From positions 32,001-96,000 of the IMG/VR virus record IMGVR_UViG_3300008735_000002: 64,000 nucleotides of DNA; one strand, written 5' to 3'. Both the position numbers and the translations under genes were made by a program. The stretch is from a virus. Under the pieces are notes generated by a model. The model worked only from the letters and a program-made list of their open reading frames with translations, did not search any database and was not told where the DNA came from. Below, piece by piece: positions 1,901 to 18,822 of the stretch; the first letter of the stretch is position 1, and every line of letters begins with the position of its first letter.

Positions 1901-2320
1901 CTACGTTGTGTAGCGCCTAACTGAAACTCCTGCTGACCGTAATAGCTCGATACCAGACAAATCGCGGTATTCTTCATCAAAAACTACCTCTTTTACGCCA
2001 CCGTTAATAATAGCCTTCGCGCACATCTTGCAAGGGCTTAAGGTAATATACATTATCTTTTTACCGCGATTATTATAGTCGCACTTAAGCAGTGCGTTAA
2101 TCTCTGCATGAATCATCCCTGAATTTCCTGGCTCAGCAGACTCAACCTCATTTGGTCCGCCTGAATAATTTCCATTATAACCGACAGCGAGTACTTGAGT
2201 ATTTTCATCTGTCACGATCACTGCACCTACCTGGTACCGTGGGTCATACGATCTACGAGCTATGGAGTGAGCAAAACCCATCCATATTTCATCCCAATGT
2301 GGTCTACCATCCGAGCTCAT
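1901..2320 (-). CDS. cd: dCMP deaminase
   Basis: Zinc deaminase motifs HAE (MIHAEINAL) and PCxxC (SPCKMC); GYNG motif. Confidence 0.92.
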   Translation of the reverse strand: MSSDGRPHWDEIWMGFAHSIARRSYDPRYQVGAVIVTDENTQVLAVGYNGNYSGGPNEVESAEPGNSGMIHAEINALLKCDYNNRGKKIMYITLSPCKMCAKAIINGGVKEVVFDEEYRDLSGIELLRSAGVSVRRYTT

Positions 2321-2897
2321 TCAAGTACCCCTTAAGGCTATCACAGCTTTCGACTTCATCTCCCCAAACTGACCATCCAGGTAACTGGTGGCGAGCAAAC
2401 AGTTCAACCTTCGTCTGGTCTGGAAACATCTGCTCAATGCGAGTTCGAACTTCATCTGGTTTCTTACTATGCTCTTCACGGAGGTGCTCTAAATATTGTC
2501 GTACATTTCTGGCACCTCGAGGTCGAGGAATTTTTCCATTTTTTCCAACAAGACAAAGCTCACACTGCGACATGGTATAAAATCCGGGATTAACTCTCAT
2601 CTTATTCCAAACGAATGCAACGGTAGAATATTTTAGCCCCCAGCTTTTTAGAAGCTCAATCCCCTGATCAAGATGAGGGTTTGTTACCCACATAAAGACA
2701 AGAGAATCTTCGTTGAGAAGCTTCTGCATTGGAAACTGCTTTAGCTGCTTTAGCTTGAGTGTACCATAATGCTTGCGAGCCCCACCTGTATCACCCATTC
2801 CAGGTTTAGAATGTTGTAGCTGGCCCTTGTAATCCCATGGTGGATCCAAATAGACAATGTCAAACCTCGGCTTCGGTTGTGTCAAAAAGTTCTTCAA
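2304..2897 (-). CDS. MT-A70 family N6-adenine methyltransferase
   Basis: DPPW catalytic motif (VYLDPPWDY), FMWVTNP, HSKKP and ELFAR motifs. The start is probably the TTG at 2897 (AAGGAG RBS 7 nt upstream), not 2990. Confidence 0.88.
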   Translation of the reverse strand: MKNFLTQPKPRFDIVYLDPPWDYKGQLQHSKPGMGDTGGARKHYGTLKLKQLKQFPMQKLLNEDSLVFMWVTNPHLDQGIELLKSWGLKYSTVAFVWNKMRVNPGFYTMSQCELCLVGKNGKIPRPRGARNVRQYLEHLREEHSKKPDEVRTRIEQMFPDQTKVELFARHQLPGWSVWGDEVESCDSLKGYLNELGW

Positions 2898-3714
2898 TGT
2901 GTTTCTCCTTAGGTAAAGTAAATCCAGCAGCTTTCTTGTGGCCACCGCCACCAAAGCTCTTAGCAATTTCTGATACGTCAACGCTCTCATGAAAAGCTCG
3001 TAAGCTGACTTTCGTTATTTCATCTTCATGATCCCAATACCAGATCAAAGCAAAATCGCAATCAGGAGAAAGCCGTGCTCCGATTTCTGACATCCAGTGA
3101 GAAGCATTTACTACCAGCACTTCCTTCCCATCCATCATGCGGGGCTGCGCTTTTTCACAGACCTTTTTGACAACAGTCTTACTGTACGCCAGGATGTAAG
3201 ATCCTCGCTTACATGCATCATCAAACACAGAGTCATCTTCAAACTTTTCGAACTCTTCAAACTCAAACGGTACCATATCGAATGCTGCACTAAACTCTTT
3301 TGAATACTCAAGTTCCCACTTCCACAGGTCTCGATCCTGAATATATTTGATAAACTTCGGTGGCTCCTTACCCGGGTGGAAATATTCCCACGCCAGTATT
3401 GCACCGCTCTTTGTCATATCAAAATGAGTGTTAGAGATATCATGAAGTTCAACCATCGCAGACTTGTGATGATCGATAATCATAAGATTTTTGGCTTTCT
3501 TTATCATCTTCTTCGTTGTAGATTTATCATAAGAGAAATCCAGAATAACTACATTTTTTCCTTTAACATCGGGTGGCGGGGTACCATGCTTACAAGCGTA
3601 ATACTCTGCTCTATTCCCTAACTGCTTCCATGCAGAATATGCCGCCCCGAAACCGTCTGTGCAGTCAGCATGATAGATTACGACATTAACTGAATTTGGG
3701 TCCATTGTACTCAT
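2860..3714 (-). CDS. DHH/DHHA1 phosphoesterase (NrnB-like nanoRNase/oligoribonuclease)
   Basis: HADCTDG, ILDFS, IIDHHKS, QDRDLW and GGGGHKKAAG motifs. Confidence 0.85.
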   Translation of the reverse strand: MSTMDPNSVNVVIYHADCTDGFGAAYSAWKQLGNRAEYYACKHGTPPPDVKGKNVVILDFSYDKSTTKKMIKKAKNLMIIDHHKSAMVELHDISNTHFDMTKSGAILAWEYFHPGKEPPKFIKYIQDRDLWKWELEYSKEFSAAFDMVPFEFEEFEKFEDDSVFDDACKRGSYILAYSKTVVKKVCEKAQPRMMDGKEVLVVNASHWMSEIGARLSPDCDFALIWYWDHEDEITKVSLRAFHESVDVSEIAKSFGGGGHKKAAGFTLPKEKHIEELFDTTEAEV

Positions 3715-3734
3715 TATACCCTCGCGATAGAAAT

Positions 3735-4175
3735 TTAATTATGTTTTTTCGGATGAACAAAAGTATATTTTTTGTCCTCTGTTGTGTCCCTTCCATAATC
3801 ATCTTCCAGCCGTATCGGTTCGCCACAATTGCCATCAGAAATTTCAAATACCACACTATCATCTTGAGCAGTCAATCGATACGCGCAACCTGCCTGAATA
3901 TTCAGAATGTCTCCCTTTTTTAGGGTGACCAAGCGCGCTGGCTCTTGAATTGAATTATGAAAGTGTCTTTCATCTGCGATTTCTGCAAGGATCTCTCCAT
4001 GTTGAATATACAGAACTTCATTTTTAGTAGGATGGAACTTAAGACTCGTGCGATGACCTGCTCGAAGGTGAATTTCTTTTCCATGAAACAAGCCGTTCCA
4101 CTGAATTTCATAGCCCCAAGGCTTCTCTTCTGAAGAAGATGTACTGGCCCATACGCATCTATTCATCTGTCTCAA
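3735..4175 (-). CDS. Cupin protein resembling the mannose-6-phosphate isomerase type II C-terminal domain
   Basis: KPWG, SLKFHPTKNE, FEIS and RLEDDYGR pattern. Confidence 0.7.
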   Translation of the reverse strand: MRQMNRCVWASTSSSEEKPWGYEIQWNGLFHGKEIHLRAGHRTSLKFHPTKNEVLYIQHGEILAEIADERHFHNSIQEPARLVTLKKGDILNIQAGCAYRLTAQDDSVVFEISDGNCGEPIRLEDDYGRDTTEDKKYTFVHPKKHN

Positions 4176-5184
4176 TCAACTCCCACCATCTTAATGTTTG
4201 ATTTAGACCATCCCAGAATTTAACCTGAGGGATCCATCCAAGTTCTTCACTAATCTTATTTATACACCCGAGAGTGTGCTTGACATCGCCCTGTCTTTCT
4301 GGTGCGTGAGCAATGGAAAGTTCAGAAAATTGCTCATTAAGTGTTGCAAGAATTTGGTTATTCGAAACAGCTGTGCCAGTTGCGACGTTGTACATCTCAA
4401 ATCCCAGAATAGCCGGGTAATCAGCAGCAACTAACATCGCATTTGCTACGTCTTTTACATACACCATGTCCCTAGTTTGTTCACCATCACCATCACTTCG
4501 AAGCGGTTCACCGTTCTTTAGTCGTGTACACCACGCAGCAACAGCAGTTGAATAGGGAGAATCCCCCAACTGTCCCGGACCGTACACATTAAAGAACCTT
4601 AGCGCAACAAAATCCATCCCATACAGGCGATTGTACATTTCTCCAAACTGCTCTACCACCAACTTCTGCAACCCGTAGGGAGATGTCGGATCTTCTGCTT
4701 CATTCTCATTTGTGGGAAGTCTAGAAACTTCGCCATAACATGCAGACGAGGACGCGAAAACAAAACGATCGATCTTATCAATGGCAGCAGACATTAATTC
4801 AATTGTTTTTTGAACATTCGTATGCGTCGTAAGAGCTGGAAATTTAACTGAATACTCTACACGAGGATTTGCGGCCAGGTGAAAAATCACATCATACCTT
4901 CCGGCTGCGACGCGCTGTAGAATGGGTCCTGCAGCGAAATCTGATGTAATAACAAGCAATGAACCCGGTTCTTCTACTATCGACGGACCAGTATTGTTTT
5001 GATCATACAGGTGTAGAACGTGCTCAGTAACCGTTCTAAATTCAAGTCCGCTTAAAGTTGCCAGGTCTCCATTCGATAAATCATCAACCCCCTCGACACT
5101 CCATCCGGCAGCAACAAGCTGACGTGTTACATGACTACCAATAAAGCCACAGCAACCTGTGACTAATGCTTTACGTGTATGCAC
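4159..5184 (-). CDS. NAD-dependent nucleotide-sugar epimerase/dehydratase (extended SDR, GalE/WbpP-like)
   Basis: GxxGFIG (TGCCGFIGSH), ASSSACYG, catalytic YxxxK (YGLQK), RFFNVYGP and RDMVYVKDVA. Confidence 0.9.
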   Translation of the reverse strand: MHTRKALVTGCCGFIGSHVTRQLVAAGWSVEGVDDLSNGDLATLSGLEFRTVTEHVLHLYDQNNTGPSIVEEPGSLLVITSDFAAGPILQRVAAGRYDVIFHLAANPRVEYSVKFPALTTHTNVQKTIELMSAAIDKIDRFVFASSSACYGEVSRLPTNENEAEDPTSPYGLQKLVVEQFGEMYNRLYGMDFVALRFFNVYGPGQLGDSPYSTAVAAWCTRLKNGEPLRSDGDGEQTRDMVYVKDVANAMLVAADYPAILGFEMYNVATGTAVSNNQILATLNEQFSELSIAHAPERQGDVKHTLGCINKISEELGWIPQVKFWDGLNQTLRWWELIETDE

Positions 5185-5728
5185 AAAAATCCTCCGCGTT
5201 TAAGTCTTTACTGATTCCTAAAAACATTTTAATCTTCTTTACCTGTTTGTTCAAGTCCATATCATCGGTTTCCAAAATAAGACATTCACATGTCGTCGTT
5301 TCATAAAACGTTCGATAATGTTTATCCAGGACTTTCAGCATTTCCGGTGGTAACTGATCTGGATACTGGTCATCAACCAAACCAGAGTAATCTTTTCGTA
5401 AACAAAGAATGAATTTGCCGTTTACCTCTGCAAACTTATCATCCATCCATGTAATTGCGTCAAGATCAGTAGGACGCTCGAATGCGCTAGCATAAACAAG
5501 CTCACAAGGATAAAAGCGGTCTAAGATAACTGACGCATCTGTTTGGTGCATGAAATCCATCAAAAACGGACCGCCGTACCGCAAAAGGTTAAGAAAGTAA
5601 TCTGGGCTGTCCAATTGTGTTTTCCATTCCCCGGAATTCTTAAAAACAGGAATACCAGTCTGGCGAGAAAGCTCAGCAGCGATATTCGACTTTCCAGTCA
5701 TATCAGGTCCGATGAATGCTATCTTCAT
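5171..5728 (-). CDS. Deoxynucleoside monophosphate kinase (thymidylate-kinase family)
   Basis: P-loop GPDMTGKS and the ILDRF motif; ATGA overlap with the upstream glycosyltransferase. Confidence 0.8.
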   Translation of the reverse strand: MKIAFIGPDMTGKSNIAAELSRQTGIPVFKNSGEWKTQLDSPDYFLNLLRYGGPFLMDFMHQTDASVILDRFYPCELVYASAFERPTDLDAITWMDDKFAEVNGKFILCLRKDYSGLVDDQYPDQLPPEMLKVLDKHYRTFYETTTCECLILETDDMDLNKQVKKIKMFLGISKDLNAEDFCAYT

Positions 5729-6780
5729 GCCCTATAATCACTCAGAATGTGTTCAAGCAAATCAGTCCTATATTCAGGCCTGGGATCGATCACGGTCCTC
5801 AGAGCCTCCTCTTGTGCATCAACAAGAGCTTTCCGTTCGGTAGCGTCCAGCGTCGCGATCCACTTAGTTTTTTCTACAACATCCAACCAGGTTTCAACCA
5901 GCAAAGACTTATCAGCAAGTCCTACCGGAATAGCGTGCTGAAACTCGATCGGAACGAGAGCAGGTACATTACTCTTAATCGCTTCAAAGAATCGACCAGT
6001 GATATTTCCGTAAGGAGTGTAAGCCGGCTTTGTAATATGAGTTACAGTAATTGATTCGTTCAGCACTTTGAAGATATCTTTATAAGCCAGCCGGGGACCG
6101 AATGCCACATTCGGTGTCTGAGCCAGCAAAACGGCGGGATCGATTCTCTCAGGTGATTTATTCAACCAGTTTCCATAAATCATAGTCTGAATACCAGCTT
6201 CTCTGAGGACAGGGCTGGGGGTCGTATAGTATTTCGCGAATTGCTCTTCACGCTCGTAGTTATTCCCAACGTAAGTATAGTTGTAAGAGTACTCGACTGG
6301 CTCGAAATACCTCTTCATATAATTGCACCATGGAATCGTAATTCGCTTACGGGTCTGATGACGAGGAGAAACACACGCGTCTGCTAAGACGGCGTTAGGC
6401 CAACGAAGCTCTTCTTCGGGAGTCATCTTAAGGTCACCATCGACAATAACAATTGGAATACCCTGCCCATGGTAATAATCAAGAACCTCACACTGACGAT
6501 TGTAGTCCGGCTCAGCGGGATTTTCTCCGCTATTTTTCCAAGTTGGCCAACGCCATTCGACATACAAGATATCACCATCCGGAAATCCAGCGTCATCATA
6601 TTCTACGCCGGGATATTGCTCATCATCCCGCATACGCTGTAGCTGAACAGGGGTATGACCACGCTTTAGTAATTCATTTACCCAATCCACACGATTGCCA
6701 CGCTCACCGTCTGGTGTGTTGACAACGCTGTTCTTTTCAAGGGGAGTAATAAACCCCCAAAAACTGTAAAGTACTCTCAT
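5725..6780 (-). CDS. GT-B glycosyltransferase resembling T4 DNA beta-glucosyltransferase
   Basis: 351 aa. The C-terminal half matches T4 BGT by eye: NITGRFFEAIKSNVPALVPIEF vs FITLRVWETMASDAVMLIDEEF; TYVGN vs VIYGGS; IYGN vs FFGN; QEEAL vs QHDIL. Confidence 0.72.
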   Translation of the reverse strand: MRVLYSFWGFITPLEKNSVVNTPDGERGNRVDWVNELLKRGHTPVQLQRMRDDEQYPGVEYDDAGFPDGDILYVEWRWPTWKNSGENPAEPDYNRQCEVLDYYHGQGIPIVIVDGDLKMTPEEELRWPNAVLADACVSPRHQTRKRITIPWCNYMKRYFEPVEYSYNYTYVGNNYEREEQFAKYYTTPSPVLREAGIQTMIYGNWLNKSPERIDPAVLLAQTPNVAFGPRLAYKDIFKVLNESITVTHITKPAYTPYGNITGRFFEAIKSNVPALVPIEFQHAIPVGLADKSLLVETWLDVVEKTKWIATLDATERKALVDAQEEALRTVIDPRPEYRTDLLEHILSDYRA

Positions 6781-6801
6781 TATTTCTCCGAGTTACTATT
6801 C

Positions 6802-6830
6802 ATTATAGCAAGTCTAAGCATTGTTTTCAA
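6802..6830 (-). promoter_or_regulatory. Sigma70-type promoter for the glycosyltransferase gene
   Basis: TTGAAA - 17 nt - TATAAT with TG at the extended -10 position; GGAG RBS before the ATG at 6780. Confidence 0.75.
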
Positions 6831-7932
6831 GCTCACGCTTAGCTTTTACAAGAGCAGAACCAATCACCTGATGCATATCATAGTACTTGTACTCTGCCAA
6901 TCTTCCACCAAAAATTATCCCATCTTGTTCAGCAGCGAGGGCTGCATACTTCTTAAACATAGCACCGTTCTTCTCATCATTGATCGGATAATAGGGCGTC
7001 TTACCCCTGCTATATTCGTCAGAGTACTCTCTTGTAATGATTGTATTCTTAAGCTTACCCGCTGTTGCTGGTAAAAAATGCTTGTGCTCTACAATTCTTG
7101 TGAATGGAACATCTGGGTGTGTATAGTTCACTACAGCGTTTCCTTGAAAATCACCCTCGAGCTCTTCATGCTCAAACCGCAACGTCCGATACTCTAGCTC
7201 ACCATAGCGAAATCCGAAGTATTCATCGATCTTTCCAGTAAACACAACCTTGTCAGCAAGAGAATCAAACTCCTCCTTATCTGAAAAGTAATCAACACCC
7301 GTCCATACTGAAACACCTTTCAGCATATTTGCCACCATTGAAGTATAACCGTCAATCGGGATACCCTGATATTTGTCAAAGAAATAATTCTCTTCAAATA
7401 CCATCCTAATCGGTAGACGCTTAATAATAGAAGCCGGTAGTTCTTTCGGATCACGCTGCCACTGCTTCATTGTATAACCCTTGATAAACGTCTCATACAC
7501 CTCACGTCCAACCTGGGATAAGATCCAGTCCTCAAGGTTGTCTGGATTCTCGCATGGGATCCTGACTTCTTCTAACTTCTTCTCAGCTTCTGCTGGTGTC
7601 ATAACACCCCAAAGCTGGTGTAGAGTCATCAGATTAATTGGGAATGAAAAGATCCGATCATTGAAGCGAATTTTTGGCTTGTTTACATAATTGTTAAACG
7701 TAGCAAAACGATTAACATAATCCCAGATCCTCTCATTATTCGTGTGAAAAATATGAGCACCATAGACATGAACGTCTACACCGTTCCGCTTTTCGGAATA
7801 AACGTTCCCACCGATGTGAGGGCGTTTATCAATTACCAGACACTCTTTACCAGCATCAGTCATCTCTCTAGCGAATGTCGCTCCAAAGATGCCTGCTCCT
7901 ACAATCAGATAGTCGTACTTTCGACGGCTCAT
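6814..7932 (-). CDS. glf: UDP-galactopyranose mutase
   Basis: FAD-binding IVGAGIFG, HIGGN, YGAHIFHT, YTMKQW, YQGIP.DGY, YRTL.FE, PYYP and GRLAEYKYYDMHQ. Confidence 0.95.
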   Translation of the reverse strand: MSRRKYDYLIVGAGIFGATFAREMTDAGKECLVIDKRPHIGGNVYSEKRNGVDVHVYGAHIFHTNNERIWDYVNRFATFNNYVNKPKIRFNDRIFSFPINLMTLHQLWGVMTPAEAEKKLEEVRIPCENPDNLEDWILSQVGREVYETFIKGYTMKQWQRDPKELPASIIKRLPIRMVFEENYFFDKYQGIPIDGYTSMVANMLKGVSVWTGVDYFSDKEEFDSLADKVVFTGKIDEYFGFRYGELEYRTLRFEHEELEGDFQGNAVVNYTHPDVPFTRIVEHKHFLPATAGKLKNTIITREYSDEYSRGKTPYYPINDEKNGAMFKKYAALAAEQDGIIFGGRLAEYKYYDMHQVIGSALVKAKRELENNA

Positions 7933-8960
7933 TGCCTTCTCCTAATATTGAAACGATAACCGCTAAATTTCAAATTTTCAAGCATTTCTTTAGCTAACTC
8001 TTTATCTCCAAGCTTTCTCATTCTATCAGCCGCTAAGATAATACCCCAATCGTGCCACATAAATGCGTCCCTTGACGAATACGCAAAGGCTCTTCGAAAG
8101 CCATGCTCAACGGCAGATGAGCTGTTGCACTTACGAAGGTCTTCTTCAAAACTCATCAGCTTCTCAATAAAGAAATTTCTTTGATCTGAACAGTCACACT
8201 CAATCGGTGGCATCGGTCCATTCCGCTTGTACAGCTCAAACTGTGATCGATTTACATTCGATGTTTTAAGAATCGTCTCGGCCATCTCAAAATGTCGTTC
8301 ATAGATATGCAGAGAATTGCTCATATGAGTGTACGACCCGAGCTCGACCCCGAGTTCATTGGCAAGAAGCTCTTGAAAAAGAGTAAAAGCTGGAATGTCA
8401 TAAGCGATTCCAAAAATTACATCAGAACTTCTCATATTAACAATCTGGTGCAGCTTTCCATCACGGATAAAAAATTGAAGTGCAAGTGTACAGGGGACAT
8501 CTAGCTTCGCATCTACGCTATCATCAGGAACACGAAGATGCATGACTGCCCGACGCGAATCAGGATCCCTCTGCAATTCTTCTATGATATATTCCCACTG
8601 ACTAAATCGTCCTTGAGCGATTTTGTGGTGAGGCTGAAACAGTCTTGCGCCGTACGCAGAGTTTGCTGTTACTCCATCATCAGAAATATCGCGCCAAAAA
8701 TTAGAATAATTCGCAATCCACTCCGTCTTATTGCTTCCTGACAAATACCAGATAAGCTCGGCGACCATATAAGTCATGCTAAACTTTCTACCGGTAACGT
8801 AAGGAATACGATCACGTGGATTTGTAATCGTAAAAGAAGCTCCTAAGAGTTCTTTGACCCTCTGCCCGCGTGGAGCAGATTCGTAAGTCGGATTTTCATA
8901 AACATGTCTTACCAAAGACAAGTAACAGTGAGTGAATGATTGATATGTGCCAATATGCAT
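7929..8960 (-). CDS. Thymidylate-synthase-fold enzyme, probable dCMP hydroxymethylase (T4 gp42-like)
   Basis: SRR, catalytic Cys in DVPCT, and MRSSDVIFGIAYD with Asp where dUMP-specific ThyA has Asn; NSAYG and SLHIYERH also resemble gp42. Confidence 0.8.
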   Translation of the reverse strand: MHIGTYQSFTHCYLSLVRHVYENPTYESAPRGQRVKELLGASFTITNPRDRIPYVTGRKFSMTYMVAELIWYLSGSNKTEWIANYSNFWRDISDDGVTANSAYGARLFQPHHKIAQGRFSQWEYIIEELQRDPDSRRAVMHLRVPDDSVDAKLDVPCTLALQFFIRDGKLHQIVNMRSSDVIFGIAYDIPAFTLFQELLANELGVELGSYTHMSNSLHIYERHFEMAETILKTSNVNRSQFELYKRNGPMPPIECDCSDQRNFFIEKLMSFEEDLRKCNSSSAVEHGFRRAFAYSSRDAFMWHDWGIILAADRMRKLGDKELAKEMLENLKFSGYRFNIRRRQ

Positions 8961-9013: not shown

Positions 9014-12000
9014 TCATATACGAAGAAGCTTAATTTTTCTCATAGAAGTTTGATATCCGAAATCATTTTTCTTGATCTCAGCAACGCAAAGGCTGTACAA
9101 CGGTAGATCCGTCTCCCCATCCCAACCCCAACAGAACATTCTATAATTCTTACCATCGAGCCCTGTAGCTGTCACAAGCAGATAAGGACGCTTATTCTTC
9201 GTAAGCTTCGGCTTAACATCTGACACCAAGAACCAGTAGAGATCATGTCCCCTGGCATCGATTTCATCAATGCATCTGATTTCTTTTGAAGCAAGCCGTT
9301 CCTGCACGTCTTCGCTAATCAATGTCGAGGCGTTGAACGACCCAAAGTGCTTTACACTGTTTTCGACCATCTCTCGCCGGGACCACCCACCAATACCTGC
9401 TGTATCGAGCAGCGCTTCGTTGAAGTTATTACGGCCCCGATTAGGGTCACGCTTGGTCCACTTTTTAATGTCTGTGTTGTGGTTAATCAGTACTTCATGC
9501 ATGTGCTTGTAGCTTTCGAACATTTTATCCGAACCGACAACGTCCATCGATTTGAACGCACGAATGTTAATTAACGCTTCAAGCGCCCGCTTGTTGAACT
9601 TCGAATGCTTCCACTTACCGTCCTCATCCCAGAGCAAGTCTTCAATGGACTGATATGGCCTGTTCCTAACTAGCTCATCAATAGCAGCTTCACCGATCCC
9701 CTTACAAGAAAGCAGAGATGGCATAAACTTCTTGCCCTCAAGAATCGTCCACTTCTTAGTAGCGTAGTTGATATCAATGGGAACAACCCGATGACCAAGC
9801 GCCTTCACTTCTGCAAATGCTTTTGCGCGCTTCTTATCGTTACCAGACATAGCCTCCAAATAAGCGCAAAGCCACTCTTCCTCGAAATATGTCAGCAGCC
9901 ACGCGCAGTAGTACGAGTCAATAGCATAACAGACTGCATGAGATTTATTGAAGCCGTAACCAGCGAAAAACAAGATCTTTTCGTATAGGTCATCGGCCAA
10001 CTGGCGATCGACGCCATTCTTAACCGAGCCAGCAACAAACTGCTCCTTAATAGCTCTCGCTTTCGCGAGACTTTCCGCGGCTTCCGAAGCTTTTCGCTTC
10101 ATAATGCTACGACGGACAGTGTCTGTTTCTTCTTCCGGGAAACCCGCGACCACAGAACAGAGCTTCATGATCTGCTCCTGGAAGACGATTAGACCGTATG
10201 TCTCCTCCAGCACTTCCTTGATCAAGGGGTGACCGTAGTCAACAGCTTCAGGATTATTCTTTGCCTTAATATAGAGACGGTCAACTTTCGCAGTTAACGG
10301 TCCAGGGCGATAAATAGACGTCAGCGTTGCAATGTCAACAATACTCTTTGGCTTAGCTTTCTTAAAAAGATTTTGAGCGCCGCGTCCCGCCAACTGAAAA
10401 ATGCCAGCCCATCGACCAGAAGCATAAACATGTTCGTAGACATGTTGATCATCCATATCCAAAACTTTAGGGTTCATATTATTGTCAAACCACTCGTAAA
10501 CCTGCGAGAACGTGGGCTCTTCAATTCCTTCTCTCCGCTGGAGAATCAGCTCAATAGTTCGTTGGATAATACGAAGCGTTTCAAGACCGAGAAGATCGAA
10601 CTTGATCCACCCGAAGGTCTCAAGGTGCTTATAGTTCATGCCTTCGACCCATGGGGTCTGGAGCTCACCACGAGCTTTGATCAACGGCATCCTTTCCGCA
10701 ATATCCTCTGCGACAATACAACCCCCAGCATGACGACCAAGAGCCTTGTTCTGCTTGAACAAAACCTGAATCGGCGCAGCTACTTCTGGATGGGCTTCGA
10801 TAAACGCCCTGAATGTCTTTGAGTGAGCTAGGGCATCTTCGTAAAGTAAAACAAACAGATTTTTATCTGTCCCCTGCTTAAACACAGCACGCTTTACATC
10901 TTCTTCAACAGGAGCCAACGCCTTATTTACCTCGTTAAACGGGATACCATAAAAGCGAGAAATATCCTTGACAAGAGACTTTAACTTGAAAGTGTTGTAA
11001 TTCGAGATGGGAACAATATTTTCGTCACCCCACTTATCTTTCATCATATTGATAAGTAAATCACGATCACCTACGTCAGTATCGATATCGGGAGCACCCT
11101 CACGAGACGGATTCAGAAAACGGCCGAACATAAGATCGTATTCAAACGGATCAACGTCTGTTAACTTAAGAACATAAGCGACCAAGCTTCCGGCGGCAGA
11201 ACCGCGACCGGGACCGACAAGCATTGCTTTTTTTGCAATACCGATAATCGCAGCCATAGTCAAGAAATAACGAGAGAAATTCTTGTCTTTGATAATCTTT
11301 AGCTCGTACTTTAGCCTCTCAATGTACTTAGGGTCGTTCGCCAAACCGCGTTCGACAAGCCCCTTCTTACAAGCTTCAAGAAGCGCTTTATCATCTGTCT
11401 GTCCCTCGGGAACGACGTAAGATGGAAGCTTCATGGTACGATCAGGAATAATTTCACTGATTTCTTCATGCACAATCTGGTGCGGCCGCTCAATCGCTGC
11501 CTTCATAACCTCATCATTGTAGAAGTCCATGCCTTCAGTGCTTTCTAGATATGTATCCCATACCTGCTGGGCGTTCTTAGGATATAGCTCGCACTTAAGC
11601 TCTTCTTTCGACTGTGGAAGCTTTGACGGATCAAAATCACGGTAGTTCAGCCACCCAAGCTTCTTATAAAGCTCACGCTCGCGCCAATGTTCTGGGCGAG
11701 CATAATGAGAATCAGTCGTTACGACAAGCTTATCATTCAAACCGTTGTTGTTGGCAAATTCAATAATTGCACGATTAACGAGATGTTGAGCAGGAAGCTT
11801 ATTAAATTGAAGCTCAAGATGCACATCATCAATACCGACTGCATCGACCAGACCCTGGTACGCATTTCCAACACCAGTCATAACGCTATTTCGAAATGAC
11901 GGGTCATTCATGAGCTTATAACTCAAATCATCAAATTCTACCTGCTGAGCATGTCTAAACACCTCATAAGCAATCGGGCCACCGATACAAGCTGTTGAGA

Positions 12001-12634
12001 CCATCAAGTGGCCACCCTCAGCTGCTTCCCTTAGCATTTTATAATCGATTCGTGGGAAGCGATAGAAGCCCTCTCTGTAACCACGGCTGACAAGATGAAA
12101 TAAACGCTGAAGGCCTTCGCTTGTCTTGGGAAGAACAACTAGATGATGGCGGCGCTTGATCGGATCATAGAATTTTGATGACTTCGTTTCCTCTTCATTT
12201 TCGATAGTCAACCCTGCTTCTTCTTTTCCAATATCGATAATCTCATCATCACCATCCACAACAGCAGTCAGCGGGGTCGCAATCGCTTCACGACGAGTCC
12301 GAAGATCGAATAGAGCTTCTTTATCACCCTTCTTCGCAGCTTGACGAATCTCATAGTCTAATTGCCATGCATCCAAATCTGGGTGCACATACATCTCACA
12401 ACCGGGAACAAACCTAAATTTTCCTCCCCGCTTTTGAACTTTTTCAGCATGCAAAAAAGCATGACCAAAAGAATTCATGTGACCATGATTCGTGAGGCAC
12501 CAACCATCCATACCATTTTCAATAACAAAATCTATATGTTCTTGAGGGTAGCCAAGGCCATCGAATGTGCTAAACCCATCATGTGAATGAAGGGAAATAA
12601 ACTTACTGGGTGGAGCAAGTGAGGTCTTTCGCAT
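9014..12634 (-). CDS. dnaE: DNA polymerase III alpha subunit (family C)
   Basis: PHP domain (SLHSH, TNHG, GCEMY, TTDSHY), GPGRGSAAGSLVAY, PDIDTD, RHAGG, KFDLLGL, YGFNKSHA and a C-terminal OB-like domain; no intein seen. Confidence 0.96.
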   Translation of the reverse strand: MRKTSLAPPSKFISLHSHDGFSTFDGLGYPQEHIDFVIENGMDGWCLTNHGHMNSFGHAFLHAEKVQKRGGKFRFVPGCEMYVHPDLDAWQLDYEIRQAAKKGDKEALFDLRTRREAIATPLTAVVDGDDEIIDIGKEEAGLTIENEEETKSSKFYDPIKRRHHLVVLPKTSEGLQRLFHLVSRGYREGFYRFPRIDYKMLREAAEGGHLMVSTACIGGPIAYEVFRHAQQVEFDDLSYKLMNDPSFRNSVMTGVGNAYQGLVDAVGIDDVHLELQFNKLPAQHLVNRAIIEFANNNGLNDKLVVTTDSHYARPEHWRERELYKKLGWLNYRDFDPSKLPQSKEELKCELYPKNAQQVWDTYLESTEGMDFYNDEVMKAAIERPHQIVHEEISEIIPDRTMKLPSYVVPEGQTDDKALLEACKKGLVERGLANDPKYIERLKYELKIIKDKNFSRYFLTMAAIIGIAKKAMLVGPGRGSAAGSLVAYVLKLTDVDPFEYDLMFGRFLNPSREGAPDIDTDVGDRDLLINMMKDKWGDENIVPISNYNTFKLKSLVKDISRFYGIPFNEVNKALAPVEEDVKRAVFKQGTDKNLFVLLYEDALAHSKTFRAFIEAHPEVAAPIQVLFKQNKALGRHAGGCIVAEDIAERMPLIKARGELQTPWVEGMNYKHLETFGWIKFDLLGLETLRIIQRTIELILQRREGIEEPTFSQVYEWFDNNMNPKVLDMDDQHVYEHVYASGRWAGIFQLAGRGAQNLFKKAKPKSIVDIATLTSIYRPGPLTAKVDRLYIKAKNNPEAVDYGHPLIKEVLEETYGLIVFQEQIMKLCSVVAGFPEEETDTVRRSIMKRKASEAAESLAKARAIKEQFVAGSVKNGVDRQLADDLYEKILFFAGYGFNKSHAVCYAIDSYYCAWLLTYFEEEWLCAYLEAMSGNDKKRAKAFAEVKALGHRVVPIDINYATKKWTILEGKKFMPSLLSCKGIGEAAIDELVRNRPYQSIEDLLWDEDGKWKHSKFNKRALEALINIRAFKSMDVVGSDKMFESYKHMHEVLINHNTDIKKWTKRDPNRGRNNFNEALLDTAGIGGWSRREMVENSVKHFGSFNASTLISEDVQERLASKEIRCIDEIDARGHDLYWFLVSDVKPKLTKNKRPYLLVTATGLDGKNYRMFCWGWDGETDLPLYSLCVAEIKKNDFGYQTSMRKIKLLRI

Positions 12635-13592: not shown

Positions 13593-13979
13593 CTATGCAT
13601 TAAGACGCTCACAAATAATCCCATGTTTCTTTACATAGGCATCAAAAAATTCCTTATGATCCACGCCAGCCAAAACAACAATCGCCAAAAAATAATTGAA
13701 CGCATCAATCATTTCTTCTAAAAATTCCTCACGATCGAATTCTGGCACACCGTAAGTCGCTTCACGATGATTCTTCCAATTCTTTAAGTGAAGTAAGGCC
13801 TCAAACAGTTCTTCCATTCCCCGGAATGCAAATTCCCGAATAGCCTGTTGGTTCTTTTTCTTGCTAAGATCCACTGGCCAGGGAGGATACGCATCAGGAA
13901 TGCGCTCGTTGATTAAGCTCATGAATTCTTCTCGTAATGAGAATACTTCTTCCAGCTTATTGTTCGACAACTTCTTCAT
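13593..13979 (-). CDS. All-alpha NTP pyrophosphatase, T4 gp56-like dCTPase/dUTPase
   Basis: MEELFEAL...NWKNH and EEMIDAFNYFLAIVVLAGVDHKEFFDAYVKKH..ERL resemble gp56 FELVDIFHFVLNMFVGLGMNAEEIFKLYYLKN..ERQ. The start at 13979 (MKKLS) is inferred. Confidence 0.72.
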   Translation of the reverse strand: MKKLSNNKLEEVFSLREEFMSLINERIPDAYPPWPVDLSKKKNQQAIREFAFRGMEELFEALLHLKNWKNHREATYGVPEFDREEFLEEMIDAFNYFLAIVVLAGVDHKEFFDAYVKKHGIICERLNA

Positions 13980-14247
13980 CCGTTGCGTTCGTAATATTCT
14001 CGTTAACCTCAGCCAACATACGCTCAAGATTATTATTAAAATTTTCCGCGTACTGGGGGTGAACTTCTATTTTGCCATCATTCGCATTAATCGTAAAACT
14101 CACTGCTCGAAAATGATCAATGATATCAGTCCCTGTAAGAATGGCAAGCTGTAGTAGTTGCGCGACATGACCGATCGCATTGTCGGATAGATTGTGAACG
14201 ACCCCGGTAACATCCAGGTCATCTGATACTTCAGAAGTAATTTCCAT
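13957..14247 (-). CDS. Hypothetical acidic protein
   Basis: 96 aa ORF with an AAGGAG RBS and an upstream promoter. Confidence 0.7.
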   Translation of the reverse strand: MEITSEVSDDLDVTGVVHNLSDNAIGHVAQLLQLAILTGTDIIDHFRAVSFTINANDGKIEVHPQYAENFNNNLERMLAEVNENITNATDEEVVEQ

Positions 14248-14314: not shown

Positions 14315-14743
14315 TCAGCCATACTCTTTAGTCAATAAAAAACCATAATAATCATTAAGAGCATGATCTTCAGGGTAAGTGCTCTTCCACTTTCCCTTTA
14401 TAAAAATTTCATAGGTGTCATCGGCATATTTCCCGCAACCATAAAGCTCTGCGGCTCTATCCCATTTTTTAGTTACAAATTCCTCGCTAAATCTTTTAAG
14501 CGTCTTTGCGCGGCGATTTGCTAGCCCAAGAGGTCGGATCAAATTCTTCAAATCATTTTCATCACACTCAACCAGGGATTCCGGATTTGGGAACTTTTCG
14601 AAAAATTCCGCTATGATGGGTTCCACTTGTTTACGAGATGTTTGATTCAAAAGTAAACAGACAATGAGTATCTTCCACCCGTCAGGCCAGAACCGCTCTT
14701 GTAATAAATCATACGGAGACTCGGGAGGGATCCATGTTACCAT
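14315..14743 (-). CDS. HhH-GPD DNA glycosylase resembling the MBD4 catalytic domain
   Basis: WIPPESPYDLLQE, LLNQT, RPLGL..RRAKTL..FS.EF, LYGCGKYADDTYEIF and PEDHALNDY parallel human MBD4 WTPPRSPFNLVQE, LHGIGKYGNDSYRIF and PEDHKLNKY. Confidence 0.85.
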   Translation of the reverse strand: MVTWIPPESPYDLLQERFWPDGWKILIVCLLLNQTSRKQVEPIIAEFFEKFPNPESLVECDENDLKNLIRPLGLANRRAKTLKRFSEEFVTKKWDRAAELYGCGKYADDTYEIFIKGKWKSTYPEDHALNDYYGFLLTKEYG

Positions 14744-15406: not shown

Positions 15407-15862
15407 CTATTTTCTCGATGTACCCTCTAAAATACGCTGTTTAATTTCAGTTGTGCTTATGCCGCCTGTGTAGGGAATATAGACAAGCACCATCCCGTTT
15501 TTTTCAATCCATTCTTGTGTAAATTGCATTTGAGAATAATAGTCTTTTTTTGCCCAATCATCACCAATCGCGATGATGTGCGGATTAACTTTCATGATTG
15601 TCTGCTTGCTGTCTTCCCCAGACAAATTGGGAACAACTGCTGATACATACTCGCAATTTAATAGCGACTTTTCTCTTTCTTCGTACGTCATGATAGGGGG
15701 TGAGCCCTTAAACTTGGCGATAAAACCATCTAGATTAAGCGCCACAATAACTTCATCTGCGAGATGACTACATTGTCTCAAAAAATTAATGTGTCCATAA
15801 TGGAATAAATCGAATGTTCCACCCGTGTACAACACTCTTTTTTTCGCTGGCTCATCACTCAT
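15407..15862 (-). CDS. Cytidylyltransferase-family nucleotidyltransferase (TagD / HldE domain II-like)
   Basis: GGTFDLFHYGH (HxGH), YEER, IGDDW and ISTTEI motifs; the start at 15862 overlaps the upstream stop (ATGA). Confidence 0.85.
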   Translation of the reverse strand: MSDEPAKKRVLYTGGTFDLFHYGHINFLRQCSHLADEVIVALNLDGFIAKFKGSPPIMTYEEREKSLLNCEYVSAVVPNLSGEDSKQTIMKVNPHIIAIGDDWAKKDYYSQMQFTQEWIEKNGMVLVYIPYTGGISTTEIKQRILEGTSRK

Positions 15863-16620
15863 CTTACCACCGTATATTTGAAACAGAACGCAACCATTTC
15901 TGAGAGTGGTTTGTTGGGTCGACACAGCATTCGAAACCACTCGCCAGTGACTGCCTCTCCATAACACCTGGTAACGCCAAGTGCCGATGCTATTTCTTTT
16001 TCGTGATCGTGTTGGCTACATATCTCATGAAAATTCTTGCCTGTGCTCAACCAAACCATCTCGTTCATAGGTTGGTTTCGTCGCAGCTGTTTCTCGCCAT
16101 GCTGTAATCGAGCTGGGCCCACGGGACATTGGTGTTGGTGCGTCTCAATAATCGCAATCGAATCGCTTAATCCTGATAACGTATCGCTTGCAGGAAAATC
16201 ATCGAACGTTACATCGGACCGCATTCGAACATAAATGCCGTCCGTGGTTGCGGGAGGGTATTGATCAACTACCCTTTTTATTTTATAGTATTGACAACTT
16301 AGATTCGTTTTCGAAGATGTAAAAGGAGTGGCCTTGTCGACCTTCGGCTCTACCTCTCCAAGTACTGAAACTGCTCCAAGCGACAGAAAAAAAGCATCAA
16401 TATTCTTAAGGCTGACATCTTCTTTTGAAAGCTCATAATCCTCAGCACGAATTTCATTTGGAAAGAATCGCGTTGAACGCTCTATAGAGTCCCAAAATGA
16501 ATACCGAACATGGATCGAACAATCAGGTAATTGATTTTTTATTGTTTCGAAAACCTTGGGCGTCGTAACGAATAGAGTTCGTACATCACCCGAATAATAC
16601 AAAAATATTTCTTCAGACAT
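15859..16620 (-). CDS. Hypothetical protein, possible glycosyltransferase
   Basis: N-terminal hydrophobic-SGDVR and central YVRMRSD resemble uncharacterised glycosyltransferase-like phage proteins (from memory); coupled to the nucleotidyltransferase. Confidence 0.5.
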   Translation of the reverse strand: MSEEIFLYYSGDVRTLFVTTPKVFETIKNQLPDCSIHVRYSFWDSIERSTRFFPNEIRAEDYELSKEDVSLKNIDAFFLSLGAVSVLGEVEPKVDKATPFTSSKTNLSCQYYKIKRVVDQYPPATTDGIYVRMRSDVTFDDFPASDTLSGLSDSIAIIETHQHQCPVGPARLQHGEKQLRRNQPMNEMVWLSTGKNFHEICSQHDHEKEIASALGVTRCYGEAVTGEWFRMLCRPNKPLSEMVAFCFKYTVVR

Positions 16621-16660: not shown

Positions 16661-17368
16661 CTACGTCATTTTACGTTCTCGATAAGCCGATATTGTTTCA
16701 GGCCAGATTTCTTCGGCAATTTGTAAGCACGCTTTAGCTAGCTGCTGTATCTCCCACTGGGCACTTTCATGCAAACGCAGCTCGATAAATTTTAATAAAT
16801 TATTGAGATTAACGGTTCCGTAATACTCTGTATATAAACTTTGCGGAAGCACAGCACGAGCCTGTTCACGACACACTCCGGAAGACATTAGTCTATGGTA
16901 AAGAGTAAGACATGTCTTGTTATGCGTCCTGACCACGCTTGACGCAGAAGTGCCATAATCGGGATCGCTTAAATCAGGGATCATCACAGGATCAATTTTC
17001 TTATTTAAATTAGAGGCTTGACGATTGGACTTGTGCTGTGTTCTAAACTCTTGAGGTTCATAAAAGCGAATGTCTACGTCAGTGTATCTTCGAGATATCT
17101 CATTATAAGACCAAGTTCTATGACGATGGTGCTGGCTACGCACAAAGAGAGGTACAGTAAAGCGAAAAGTGATAACGTTGTGCTCAAGCGTTGACGTATG
17201 CTTGTGATTGATGAGATAACGAATAAGCTTCTTATCTTTTCCATCTAACTCTTCCCTAACTTTTCCAAAAGAAACCCTAGCGCTGTTCACCACTGTTAAA
17301 TCGGATCCCATATGCTCCACGTATTCGACTGCGCCAATGGCGTCATCATAAAGTTCGATTCTTTTCAC
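16661..17368 (-). CDS. thyX: Flavin-dependent thymidylate synthase
   Basis: NSARVSF, HTSTLEH, the RHRx7SxR signature (RHRTWSYNEISRRY), EQARAVLP and AQWEI. Confidence 0.95.
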   Translation of the reverse strand: MKRIELYDDAIGAVEYVEHMGSDLTVVNSARVSFGKVREELDGKDKKLIRYLINHKHTSTLEHNVITFRFTVPLFVRSQHHRHRTWSYNEISRRYTDVDIRFYEPQEFRTQHKSNRQASNLNKKIDPVMIPDLSDPDYGTSASSVVRTHNKTCLTLYHRLMSSGVCREQARAVLPQSLYTEYYGTVNLNNLLKFIELRLHESAQWEIQQLAKACLQIAEEIWPETISAYRERKMT

Positions 17369-17800
17369 TCAGTACTCCATGTCTTTTCGAATTTCTTCTT
17401 CGCTCTTCGTTCTTTTATCTTGGTACTCTTTCTTTATATTGATAATTGGAACGGGTTCACCGTCACCATCTATTCTTACAAACGTCATTTCAACTTCACA
17501 TACCGGGCGTTGAGAACCGTTCACAACGCTGTGTCGTCTGGCTTGAAGCGCCACTGTGATAGAAGAGCTCCCAATTTTGACAACATCACCGTACACCTTT
17601 ATAATCTGACCTGGGCGGACTGGACGCTGAAACACTACTTGCGAAATGCATTTAGTCACCATCCTTGGAGAACCACACACTTGAGCAGTAAATGCAGCGC
17701 CGGCTTCGTCCAGCCAAGAGAGCATAACACCCCCAAAGAGATTACCATGCACCCCGATATTCTGTCCTTTGCAAATATGAGTAGAGATTAATTGCATCAT
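17369..17800 (-). CDS. Hotdog-fold acyl-CoA thioesterase (YciA-like)
   Basis: HGNLFGGVMLSWLDEA, F..PV..G, G.SS and MTFVRID..G.P.PI. Confidence 0.85.
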   Translation of the reverse strand: MMQLISTHICKGQNIGVHGNLFGGVMLSWLDEAGAAFTAQVCGSPRMVTKCISQVVFQRPVRPGQIIKVYGDVVKIGSSSITVALQARRHSVVNGSQRPVCEVEMTFVRIDGDGEPVPIINIKKEYQDKRTKSEEEIRKDMEY

Positions 17801-17811
17801 TTTATTTTTCT

Positions 17812-18822
17812 CTACAAAATAAATCTACAAATTTGTAGCGCAACTCGATATGGATCACAACCCGATGATGGACGCCGGTCCTCAAGATATCCGCGCCATC
17901 CAGCTGTTGGAACTGAATTAGGGATCCGGACTGACGCTCCCCTGGAGGCGATTCCGCAACTAAATTCTTCCATGCTTGCTGTCTCAAATCCGCCTGTTAA
18001 CCTCAAGGCGTTATCTGGTCCATACTCACGAATCGATTCATCATGATATTTTTCCATGTTGGCGATAACCCTATCAAAGATTTCTTTTTCACCGGATTCG
18101 CGCATTGATTTTGTAGAAAAATTAGTATGACATCCTGACCCATTCCATCCAGCATGTGGCTTAGGGTGCCAATCTATCCCGAGTACTAAGTCTTCTGCCA
18201 TTAGCTCCAGCAAATAGCGGCTTACCCAAAGGGCGTCTGATGCTTCTAGCGGATCTGCGCCAAAACACTGGTATTCCCATTGACCTGGCGAAACCTCTGC
18301 GTTGTAACCCACAACTCGAATCCCTAGTGAATTACAAAAAGATGCATGTTCGCGAACGAGCTTCCGATACTTCACACTTCCACCCGATGAGCAGTAATAG
18401 CGAGAATCTTTTATAGGCTCACCCTGGTCTGGCCAAAAAACGTTCTTGCCTTCTGACGTGATAAAGTACTCTTGCTCAAACCCTATCCACAACTCTTTTG
18501 TAGCAATGCCATCTTCGACCAATTTACGTAGCTTGGCTCGATAATTTGTTTCATGTGGTGTTCTTTCCTCATCTGGTAAACACACTTCACAAATAGCCAC
18601 GTAATGATTATCTGCTACTTGATATACTCGGTGAGGCTTTAAAATTCTTTCTGAATCTTCTGTCGGAGCCTGTCCTGTGGAAGAACCGTCAAAATTCCAC
18701 TCAGGTACTTTTAGCTCTACTTCACCACCCTCATTAGGCGTAAGCTGGACCATTTTTGTTTTTGACCGGAGTGCGGGATGATCAAACCCGTCAACCCAGA
18801 GATAATCTAGATGAACTAACAA
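17812..18822 (-). CDS. glnII: Glutamine synthetase type II
   Basis: WNFDGSSTGQA, GFEQEY, NAEV.PGQWEYQ, WNGSGCHTNFST, RLTG..ET, RGASVRIP and YLEDRRP. Confidence 0.92.
   Translation of the reverse strand: MLVHLDYLWVDGFDHPALRSKTKMVQLTPNEGGEVELKVPEWNFDGSSTGQAPTEDSERILKPHRVYQVADNHYVAICEVCLPDEERTPHETNYRAKLRKLVEDGIATKELWIGFEQEYFITSEGKNVFWPDQGEPIKDSRYYCSSGGSVKYRKLVREHASFCNSLGIRVVGYNAEVSPGQWEYQCFGADPLEASDALWVSRYLLELMAEDLVLGIDWHPKPHAGWNGSGCHTNFSTKSMRESGEKEIFDRVIANMEKYHDESIREYGPDNALRLTGGFETASMEEFSCGIASRGASVRIPNSVPTAGWRGYLEDRRPSSGCDPYRVALQICRFIL

Follow-up and report, generated by a model that had tools for sequence, protein, structure and literature searches.

The stretch of DNA studied here raises the question of what a phage does with a gene for UDP-galactopyranose mutase (glf) placed between a homologue of thymidylate synthase (TS) and a glycosyltransferase (GT) that recalls the beta-glucosyltransferase (BGT) of bacteriophage T4. 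The window, that is, the whole stretch analysed, comprises 64,000 nucleotides of the IMG/VR viral record IMGVR_UViG_3300008735_000002, a contig of 119 kb in which it spans bases 32001-96000, and the genes in question form a run on its minus strand directly downstream of dnaE. Since CheckV rated this 119 kb contig as 37% complete, its source was considered to be a jumbo phage. The answer that we prefer, and that we put forward tentatively, is that the block constitutes a T4-style module for the replacement and glycosylation of cytosine, with galactofuranosyl-5-hydroxymethylcytosine as its likely product. Sequence and fold together established the identities of the enzymes and the presence of a hydroxymethylase-type active site in the TS homologue.

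Gene identities were checked with Pfam, PHROG and NCBIfam, and all the coordinates given below are window positions. By these searches, every gene of the minus-strand run that the original prediction, made from the sequence alone, had named was found in its place. The genes at the centre of the question, together with a promoter-like site lying among them, are the following:

9014-12634, minus strand: DnaE-type DNA polymerase III alpha subunit, the upstream anchor of the module (PF07733, PF17657, PHP and HHH_6).
7929-8960, minus strand: TS homologue of 343 amino acids, predicted dCMP hydroxymethylase, that is, 5-hydroxymethyl-dCMP synthase (PF00303, 1e-38).
6814-7932, minus strand: Glf, UDP-galactopyranose mutase (PF03275, 1.1e-77; TIGR00031, 374 bits).
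6802-6830, minus strand: promoter-like site TTGAAA-17-TATAAT with a TG extension (11/12 matches).
5725-6780, minus strand: GT-B glycosyltransferase of 351 amino acids, remotely T4 BGT-like and predicted to act on DNA containing 5-hydroxymethylcytosine (family profile and fold).
5171-5728, minus strand: P-loop nucleotide kinase, YorR-like, predicted to phosphorylate 5-hydroxymethyl-dCMP (PHROG 761, 4e-6).
4159-5184, minus strand: extended short-chain dehydrogenase/reductase (SDR) resembling UDP-hexose 4-epimerases of the GalE/WbpP type (PF01370, 1.6e-47).

Several of these reading frames overlap. Direct reading of the sequence confirmed the predicted ATGA, shared by the stop codon of TS and the start codon of Glf, and the overlap that had also been announced for the kinase consists of 4 nt shared with the GT gene. 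Further overlaps join the kinase to the epimerase (14 nt) and the epimerase to the gene of a small cupin that follows it (17 nt). No match to the 7 kb block was obtained by megablast against 50,697 phage records, and the dnaE product was at most 29% identical to that of any isolated phage. As far as sequence can tell, this is a phage lineage without an isolated relative.

The base to be expected in the DNA of this phage was deduced from the TS homologue. Its closest solved relative is MilA, the CMP hydroxymethylase of mildiomycin (4.8e-47; PDB 5jnh and 5b6d), whose long C-terminal extension is also present in the window protein. We aligned the window TS with T4 gp42, RB69 gp48, RL38J1 gp216 and the TS of phage ATCCB using MAFFT, and numbered the residues according to E. 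coli ThyA. In this alignment the window enzyme displayed the catalytic C146 with the phosphate-binding Arg pair R126/R127, the substitutions L143D and N177D, and the conserved D169, W80 and G173. This pattern is that of T4 gp42 and was found in all 31 distinct TS homologues of the related loci. According to the rules described for these enzymes, N177D determines the choice of cytosine, L143D/E accompanies a non-methyl product, and D169N is the mark of the RB69, DLP3 and RL38J1 enzymes, which are flavin-dependent 5-hydroxy-dCMP synthases (Lee et al., NAR 2026, PMC13326640). The synthases RB69 gp48 and RL38J1 gp216, which lead to 5-hydroxycytosine (5hoC), carry N169, A80 and V173, unlike the window TS. 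As the latter combines the gp42-type signature with a retained D169, its product is predicted to be 5-hydroxymethyl-dCMP and not the precursor of 5hoC. Residues D143, D169 and D177 thus support the cytosine-specific enzyme of hydroxymethylase type proposed in the original prediction, which had left 5-hydroxycytosine as an option. That option is disfavoured by the retention of D169, accompanied by W80 and G173, and was rejected.

The kinship with MilA made CMP another candidate substrate. In structural work, residues K133 and A176 are reported to give MilA its preference for ribonucleotides. The window TS differs from MilA in having Arg and Ser at these two positions, as do the enzymes that use dCMP or dUMP, and the ribonucleotide was rejected as a substrate for this reason. 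We consider it highly probable that 5-hydroxymethylcytosine (hmC) replaces cytosine in the DNA of the phage.

Regarding the glycosyltransferase, 172 metagenomic homologues were found, and nothing was retrieved by tblastn from the same 50,697 phage records. The protein had no similarity to T4 BGT at the BLAST level and did not match the Pfam BGT family, and its hit to Glyco_trans_1_2 (7e-4) was below the cut-off. A profile of its family built from 32 homologues (A1) had T4 BGT as the only match in PDB (E 2e-5), along residues 227-333 of the C-terminal domain. Within this region R263 and E266 are invariant and align with R269 and E272, the residues with which T4 BGT binds UDP. The AlphaFold2 model of the protein (predicted local distance difference test, pLDDT, of 91.5) had T4 BGT as its best Foldseek match (1c3j, 7.8e-10). 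When the model was compared with VIA-align, the BGT entries occupied ranks 1-4 (Z 23.1-21.7), with 1nzd giving Z 23.1 and a root-mean-square deviation of 3.6 over 306 residues. Because unrelated GT-B enzymes reached Z of about 21.7, the lead of BGT is small and the fold by itself is insufficient to pick it out. The sequence profile, for the C-terminal domain, and the fold, by a small margin, are both in support of the T4-BGT-like enzyme that had been claimed. We regard it as likely that this GT glycosylates hmC in the phage DNA, giving glycosyl-hmC, and it is the genomic context only that argues for DNA as its acceptor.

This context was studied by comparing 46 IMG/VR loci having a GT homologue, with flanks of 10 kb. 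GT and kinase were adjacent in all of them, and TS and epimerase appeared wherever the flanks extended to them, as did dnaE and the dCMP deaminase in most cases. In 45 of the loci, dnaE was present in the flanks and on the same strand as GT, the exception being the distant locus L054. TS, GT, kinase and epimerase are, therefore, a conserved core, and its persistence across the 46 loci is the strongest argument for GT acting in nucleotide or DNA metabolism.

The presence of sugar-nucleotide enzymes inside the block bears on the identity of the sugar. Glf scored 374 bits with the TIGR00031 equivalog model, whose cut-off is 303.75, is 52% identical to Glf of E. coli K-12 and keeps the motifs HIFHT, GYTxKQW, KRLPxR, TRxxEHKHF, PYYPxND and RLAEYKYYDM. 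It is, as had been claimed, a canonical UDP-galactopyranose mutase, and its gene is translationally coupled to that of TS. The best PDB matches of the epimerase were the GalE of Thermotoga maritima (4zrm, 5.9e-46) and also the UDP-GlcNAc 4-epimerases WbpP and WbgU. In the alignment with 4zrm, the protein shows the catalytic Ser/YxxxK set of SDR enzymes (FASSSACYGE and SPYGLQK), and it lacks the TDE motif of dehydratases. With a 4-epimerase and Glf both encoded by the phage, a sugar other than glucose is probable, and we lean towards one derived from galactose. It is possible, though we hold it with less confidence, that the DNA carries galactofuranosyl-hmC, made by the BGT-like GT with UDP-galactofuranose that the phage itself obtains from UDP-glucose by means of the epimerase and the mutase. 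To our knowledge, galactofuranosyl-5-hydroxymethylcytosine has not been demonstrated chemically in any DNA.

Glf was found within the module in the clade of the window, whose members keep the gene order and have GT proteins of 74% identity or more, and, outside it, only in L054. Four observations support its connection with DNA. The stop-start overlap between TS and Glf is kept throughout the clade; in two of its loci (L023 and L024) Glf also overlaps the start of GT, by 11 nt; the genomes G006 and G007 have a single Glf each, located at the TS-GT junction; and in L054 (L054:7379-12966) the genes follow the order UXS/dehydratase-like SDR, Glf, kinase, GT, 4-epimerase and TS. In this last locus Glf entered the DNA module in a second, independent lineage.

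The remaining steps of a cytosine replacement pathway may be provided by four other genes of the window:

1901-2320, minus strand: dCMP deaminase (PF00383, 9.8e-23; PHROG 174, 8e-50).
13593-14027, minus strand: MazG/PRA-PH-like nucleoside triphosphate (NTP) pyrophosphohydrolase, candidate dCTPase (PF01503, 2.4e-5; PHROG 12184, 1.1e-12).
14315-14743, minus strand: MBD4-type HhH-GPD DNA glycosylase of 142 amino acids (PF00730, 1.7e-14).
16661-17368, minus strand: ThyX, flavin-dependent thymidylate synthase, source of dTMP for the phage (PF02511, 1.6e-49).

The best PDB match of the profile made from the kinase family (A3) was YorR of SPbeta (2axp/3kb2, 1.3e-7, full length), followed by deoxynucleoside kinases. 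YorR is likewise the structural match listed for gp78, the nucleotide kinase of DLP3 (Lee et al. Table 1, PMC13326640). The MazG-like protein passed the cut-off of PF01503 (25.1 bits over 21.3), and no match was obtained for it in a sequence search of PDB. A gp56-like dCTPase had been predicted in the window: an enzyme of the MazG/PRA-PH kind is indeed present, but its equation with T4 gp56 is tentative, the pairwise similarity being weak (E 0.025 over 41 residues). ThyX and the MBD4-like glycosylase, which had been placed elsewhere in the window, were both found. The latter matched the glycosylase domain of MBD4 over 134 residues (phmmer, 2.6e-40) with the region of the catalytic Asp kept, and could fit the repair of deaminated hmC, that is, of 5-hydroxymethyluracil (hmU) or U opposite G. 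As a separate observation, it resembles mammalian MBD4 far more than any bacterial HhH-GPD enzyme in PDB.

In the mechanism that we propose, dCMP would be supplied by nucleotide salvage and by the hydrolysis of dCTP, the latter attributed to the MazG-like enzyme despite its weak similarity to gp56. The TS homologue would convert dCMP into 5-hydroxymethyl-dCMP, and the YorR-like kinase, followed by the NDP kinase of the host, would take this to the triphosphate, which the DnaE replisome would incorporate instead of dC. The dCMP deaminase and ThyX would maintain dTTP. After replication, the BGT-like GT-B enzyme would move a hexose from a UDP-sugar onto the hydroxymethyl group. For this purpose the GalE-like epimerase would turn UDP-glucose into UDP-galactopyranose and Glf would turn the latter into UDP-galactofuranose. 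The hmU or U left opposite G by deamination would be excised by the MBD4-type glycosylase. In this scheme we infer the DNA acceptor, the completeness of cytosine replacement, and both the kind of sugar and the form of its ring.

The pathway so drawn follows the logic of the glucosyl-hmC pathway of the T-even phages, which in T4 consists of the dCMP hydroxymethylase gp42, the dNMP kinase gp1, the dCTPase gp56, the dCMP deaminase Cd and the alpha- and beta-glucosyltransferases. With it the window module shares the TS signature D143, D169 and D177, a dCMP deaminase and an NTP pyrophosphohydrolase. The transferases of both phages are GT-B enzymes of 351 amino acids with the UDP-binding Arg/Glu pair aligned. 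However, the window GT is remote from BGT, to which its profile matches in the C-terminal domain only, and the kinase is YorR-like instead of gp1-like. In addition, and in contrast to T4, the window phage takes its dTMP from ThyX, replicates with DnaE and encodes its own 4-epimerase and Glf.

Furanoses and galactose have already been associated with the DNA of other phages. Rhizobium phage RL38J1 (Pootjesviridae) has glycosylated 5-hydroxycytosine with a base-proximal galactose on C5, and the supply of UDP-galactofuranose by the phage Glf was proposed by the authors of that work (preprint 2025; Lee et al., NAR 2026, PMC13326640). RL38J1 and the window have in common a row of TS homologue, GT and kinase, as well as a phage-encoded Glf. 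The differences are that gp216 is a D169N 5-hydroxy-dCMP synthase and the sugar is ether-linked, whereas the window TS retains D169, W80 and G173; that Glf of RL38J1 lies about 60 kb from TS and GT; and that the two Glf proteins are 45% identical. The RL38J1 transferase gp215 has no detectable similarity to the window GT. RB69 and Acinetobacter phage DLP3, whose base is arabinosyl-5hoC, resemble the window in having genes for sugar-nucleotide supply beside the TS homologue, a YorR-like kinase (DLP3 gp78) and a GT-B enzyme, and the sugars of their DNA are furanoses, namely arabinofuranose (Araf). They differ from it in the 5hoC base, in the pentose and in producing NDP-arabinose by means of a kinase, a nucleotidyltransferase and an isomerase, not with an epimerase and a mutase.

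Other similarities were found among further isolated phages. Lactobacillus phage ATCCB (MK504445) has an hmC-type TS (D143, D169, D177), a BGT homologue and Glf in this order, with a similar small kinase upstream. Its GT is 31% identical to T4 BGT, while the similarity of the window GT to BGT is undetectable by BLAST, and we found no published chemistry of ATCCB DNA. Enterococcus phages VPE25 and VFW, whose DNA behaves as if it contained glycosylated hmC, have a gene for a homologue of WbbI-like galactofuranosyltransferases (PMC4999554). ATCCB, VPE25 and VFW are small siphoviruses of Firmicutes, in contrast to the jumbo phage of the window. It was also observed that in the T4-like Tulanevirus phages of Aeromonas, as in Aes508 (L057, NC_019543:147159-158205), Glf is followed by gp220 and gp218, two uncharacterised proteins of about 350 amino acids each without BLAST similarity to T4 BGT. 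Both can be considered candidates for DNA glycosyltransferases, and in phages that are cultured.

In view of these precedents the pathway cannot be called new, as the original prediction had suggested it might be: a route supplied by Glf was already proposed for RL38J1 (PMC13326640), and Glf stands beside TS or genes of unknown function in ATCCB and Tulanevirus. What would be new in the window is the combination with hmC instead of 5hoC, the very divergent BGT-like enzyme and its occurrence in an uncultured lineage of DnaE-type jumbo phages.

We looked further into the genes with which Glf is associated by taking the window Glf, retrieving its 80 best-matching viral loci and examining their 10 kb neighbourhoods. 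The next-closest Glf proteins after those of the clade (L073-L081, 61-64% identity) are encoded between Gmd, a GDP-mannose 4,6-dehydratase, and a PD-(D/E)XK nuclease accompanied by two GT1 enzymes. Synteny links this region to a glycan cluster of G006, a genome of the window's clade with a completeness of 92%, where the cluster occupies 35-55 kb. The cluster kept by G006 (L058, G006:35000-54999) contains four GT2, fucosyltransferases of GT10 and GT11 type, a GDP-fucose-synthase-like SDR, two DegT aminotransferases, Gmd, the PD-(D/E)XK nuclease and two GT1. The L073-L081 loci come from the same samples as the sister-clade contigs bearing the module without Glf, and we joined the two sets of contigs on the basis of these shared samples and of a matching divergence, not of a single contig. 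In G005, a distant relative that has the same module of TS, GT, kinase and epimerase, Glf is 85 kb away (L059, G005:134000-150000) among three GT2, three GT1/GT4, a carbamoyltransferase and a SAM methyltransferase. Therefore, the place of Glf in this group of jumbo phages is at times the DNA module and at times a large glycan cluster. With the Pfam models of GT1, GT2 and GT1_4 nothing was detected in the 119 kb contig of the window, which does not prove absence, as the contig has a completeness of 37% and the BGT-like GT likewise escapes these models. A glycan cluster like that of G006 probably lies beyond the end of this contig, with virion proteins, the host surface and DNA as candidate targets.

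These and other data weigh against Glf serving the DNA glycosyltransferase. Because Glf moves between the DNA module and the glycan cluster, adjacency alone is no proof of its link with DNA; and since the clade has a glycan cluster together with a single Glf, UDP-galactofuranose has a second plausible consumer. TS, a GT of the window type (A1) or the kinase occurred within 10 kb in 14 of the 80 loci, all from the clade of the window. Among the relatives that share GT, TS, kinase and epimerase, the majority have no Glf nearby, and it is wholly missing from two whose completeness is fairly high (73% and 84%); in the more distant relatives, a second SDR stands beside GT in the place of Glf. The co-occurrence of glf with Asp-type TS and BGT-like genes, which the original prediction had suggested checking, is thus real in the clade and in L054 and missing in most relatives. 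In search of residues that might have switched the donor, only five mild positions were found that set the GT proteins of the Glf-linked clade apart from all the others, none of them shared by L054, and as far as sequence goes this comparison supports neither Glf-fed nor any other donor. As regards transcription, the promoter-like site, which is near consensus and of the extended -10 type, overlies the 3' end of glf, directly upstream of the GT start, and was the best in the 12 kb scanned. The same element precedes GT in 8 of 10 distinct relatives of the clade despite their differing spacers, so that TS-Glf and GT-kinase-epimerase may form separate transcription units. The claim that Glf feeds the DNA GT is consequently not secured by comparative genomics: Glf is accessory, the GT bears no donor-switch signature and related Glf proteins belong to a glycan cluster.

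From these data it could be argued that hmC is glycosylated from a pyranose donor, UDP-galactose or UDP-glucose, and that Glf serves the glycan cluster, for example in the glycosylation of virions or cell surfaces, its position between TS and GT being a rearrangement without meaning for DNA. This is a serious possibility, if a doubtful one. It agrees with the closest Glf outside the clade being part of a glycan cluster and with the GT1/GT2 and the carbamoyl- and methyltransferases that flank Glf in G005, with G006 keeping such a cluster while its single Glf sits at the TS-GT junction, with a GT that is conserved with or without a nearby Glf and free of donor-switch residues, and with the promoter of its own that GT appears to have. 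It has more difficulty in explaining why the coupling of TS to Glf is clade-wide and extends to GT in L023 and L024, why Glf arrived independently in the DNA module of L054, why it adjoins BGT-type or uncharacterised transferases in ATCCB and the Aeromonas phages, and why the base-proximal sugar of the Glf-encoding RL38J1 is galactose. Furthermore, the connection between the Glf contigs and the module contigs of the sister clade rests on shared samples and similar divergence.

The donor might also be another furanose, if the epimerase acted on UDP-GlcNAc or UDP-xylose and the mutase gave UDP-N-acetylgalactofuranosamine (UDP-GalfNAc) or UDP-L-arabinofuranose, so that the base would be GalfNAc- or Araf-hmC. 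The best NCBIfam family of the epimerase is GalE (TIGR01179), with 153.7 bits that fall short of the 262.3 of the equivalog cut-off, and the protein resembles UDP-GlcNAc 4-epimerases such as WbpP and WbgU about as well as GalE, which also counts against our main reading. In L054 the UXS/dehydratase-like SDR lies directly before Glf with the 4-epimerase nearby, a set that presumably could make UDP-L-arabinofuranose and might yield an Araf-hmC variant. However, the window has no second SDR resembling UXS, its Glf passes the equivalog model of the mutase and matches all the E. coli motifs including the His of HIFHT, and UDP-glucose is a universal precursor in the host; we find these other furanoses very improbable. 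Hardly less improbable is that GT does not act on DNA, or that TS does not feed it, with a MilA-like CMP-derived antibiotic product or a protein or lipid acceptor in their place. In favour of this are the antibiotic-pathway enzyme as best solved relative of TS and the remoteness of the similarity to BGT, by fold nearly equalled by other GT-B enzymes. Against it stand the Arg and Ser that replace the CMP-preferring K133 and A176 of MilA, the company of dnaE, the nucleotide kinase, dCMP deaminase, ThyX, the MazG-like NTPase and the MBD4-type glycosylase, and the fact that T4 BGT was the sole PDB match of GT at the sequence level. Galactofuranosyl-hmC formed by a T4-style module remains, with the reserve expressed above, our preferred reading.

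The block continues after the epimerase with three genes that precede the dCMP deaminase:

3735-4175, minus strand: small cupin (Pfam Cupin_1, 8e-4; PHROG 7851, 4.8e-12).
2860-3714, minus strand: DHH/DHHA1 phosphoesterase, NrnA/RecJ-like (PF02272, 2.6e-10; PHROG 4771, 1e-78).
2304-2990, minus strand: MT-A70 family N6-adenine DNA methyltransferase (PF05063, 6e-26; PHROG 359, 1.3e-62).

The cupin, adjacent to the epimerase, was found only in the clade of the window and its sister clade among the 46 related loci. It has K46 and Y99 at positions where cupins usually bind metal through His, and both the PDB profile search and Foldseek with its confident AlphaFold2 model (pLDDT 90.4) gave generic cupins only. 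The DHH/DHHA1 protein is the best-conserved product of the block among the nearest relatives, with up to 94% identity, above GT and TS, and its candidate roles are nucleotide salvage and the hydrolysis of pAp or of cyclic dinucleotides. As the listed reading frame of MT-A70 overlaps DHH by 131 nt, its true start is probably an internal codon further downstream. This methyltransferase is probably outside the cytosine pathway, and at its position L013 and L016-L019 have a gene about 30% identical to it, suggesting a replacement.

Two more features were observed near ThyX. A cytidylyltransferase-like nucleotidyltransferase of the TagD/RfaE domain II type (15407-15967, minus strand; PHROG 7878, 1.8e-34) could activate a sugar or polyol phosphate; no partner for it is evident, and none of the related loci has it in the 10 kb flanks. 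Between ThyX and a peptidoglycan amidase, the region 17369-18822 (minus strand) encodes a 4HBT thioesterase and a glutamine-synthetase-like protein, an odd cargo for a replication module.

Phages whose cytosines bear sugars have DNA that is shielded against restriction enzymes and CRISPR nucleases. With every DNA sugar added to the list, type IV restriction gains targets and epigenetic chemistry gains reagents. The question is best addressed in cultured phages with the same gene triad, such as ATCCB. If the reading proposed here is true, the known glucosyl, gentiobiosyl and arabinosyl forms would be joined by a hexose with a furanose ring, in galactofuranosyl-hmC, and the hmC and 5hoC branches of these phages would have independently recruited one and the same donor enzyme, Glf.

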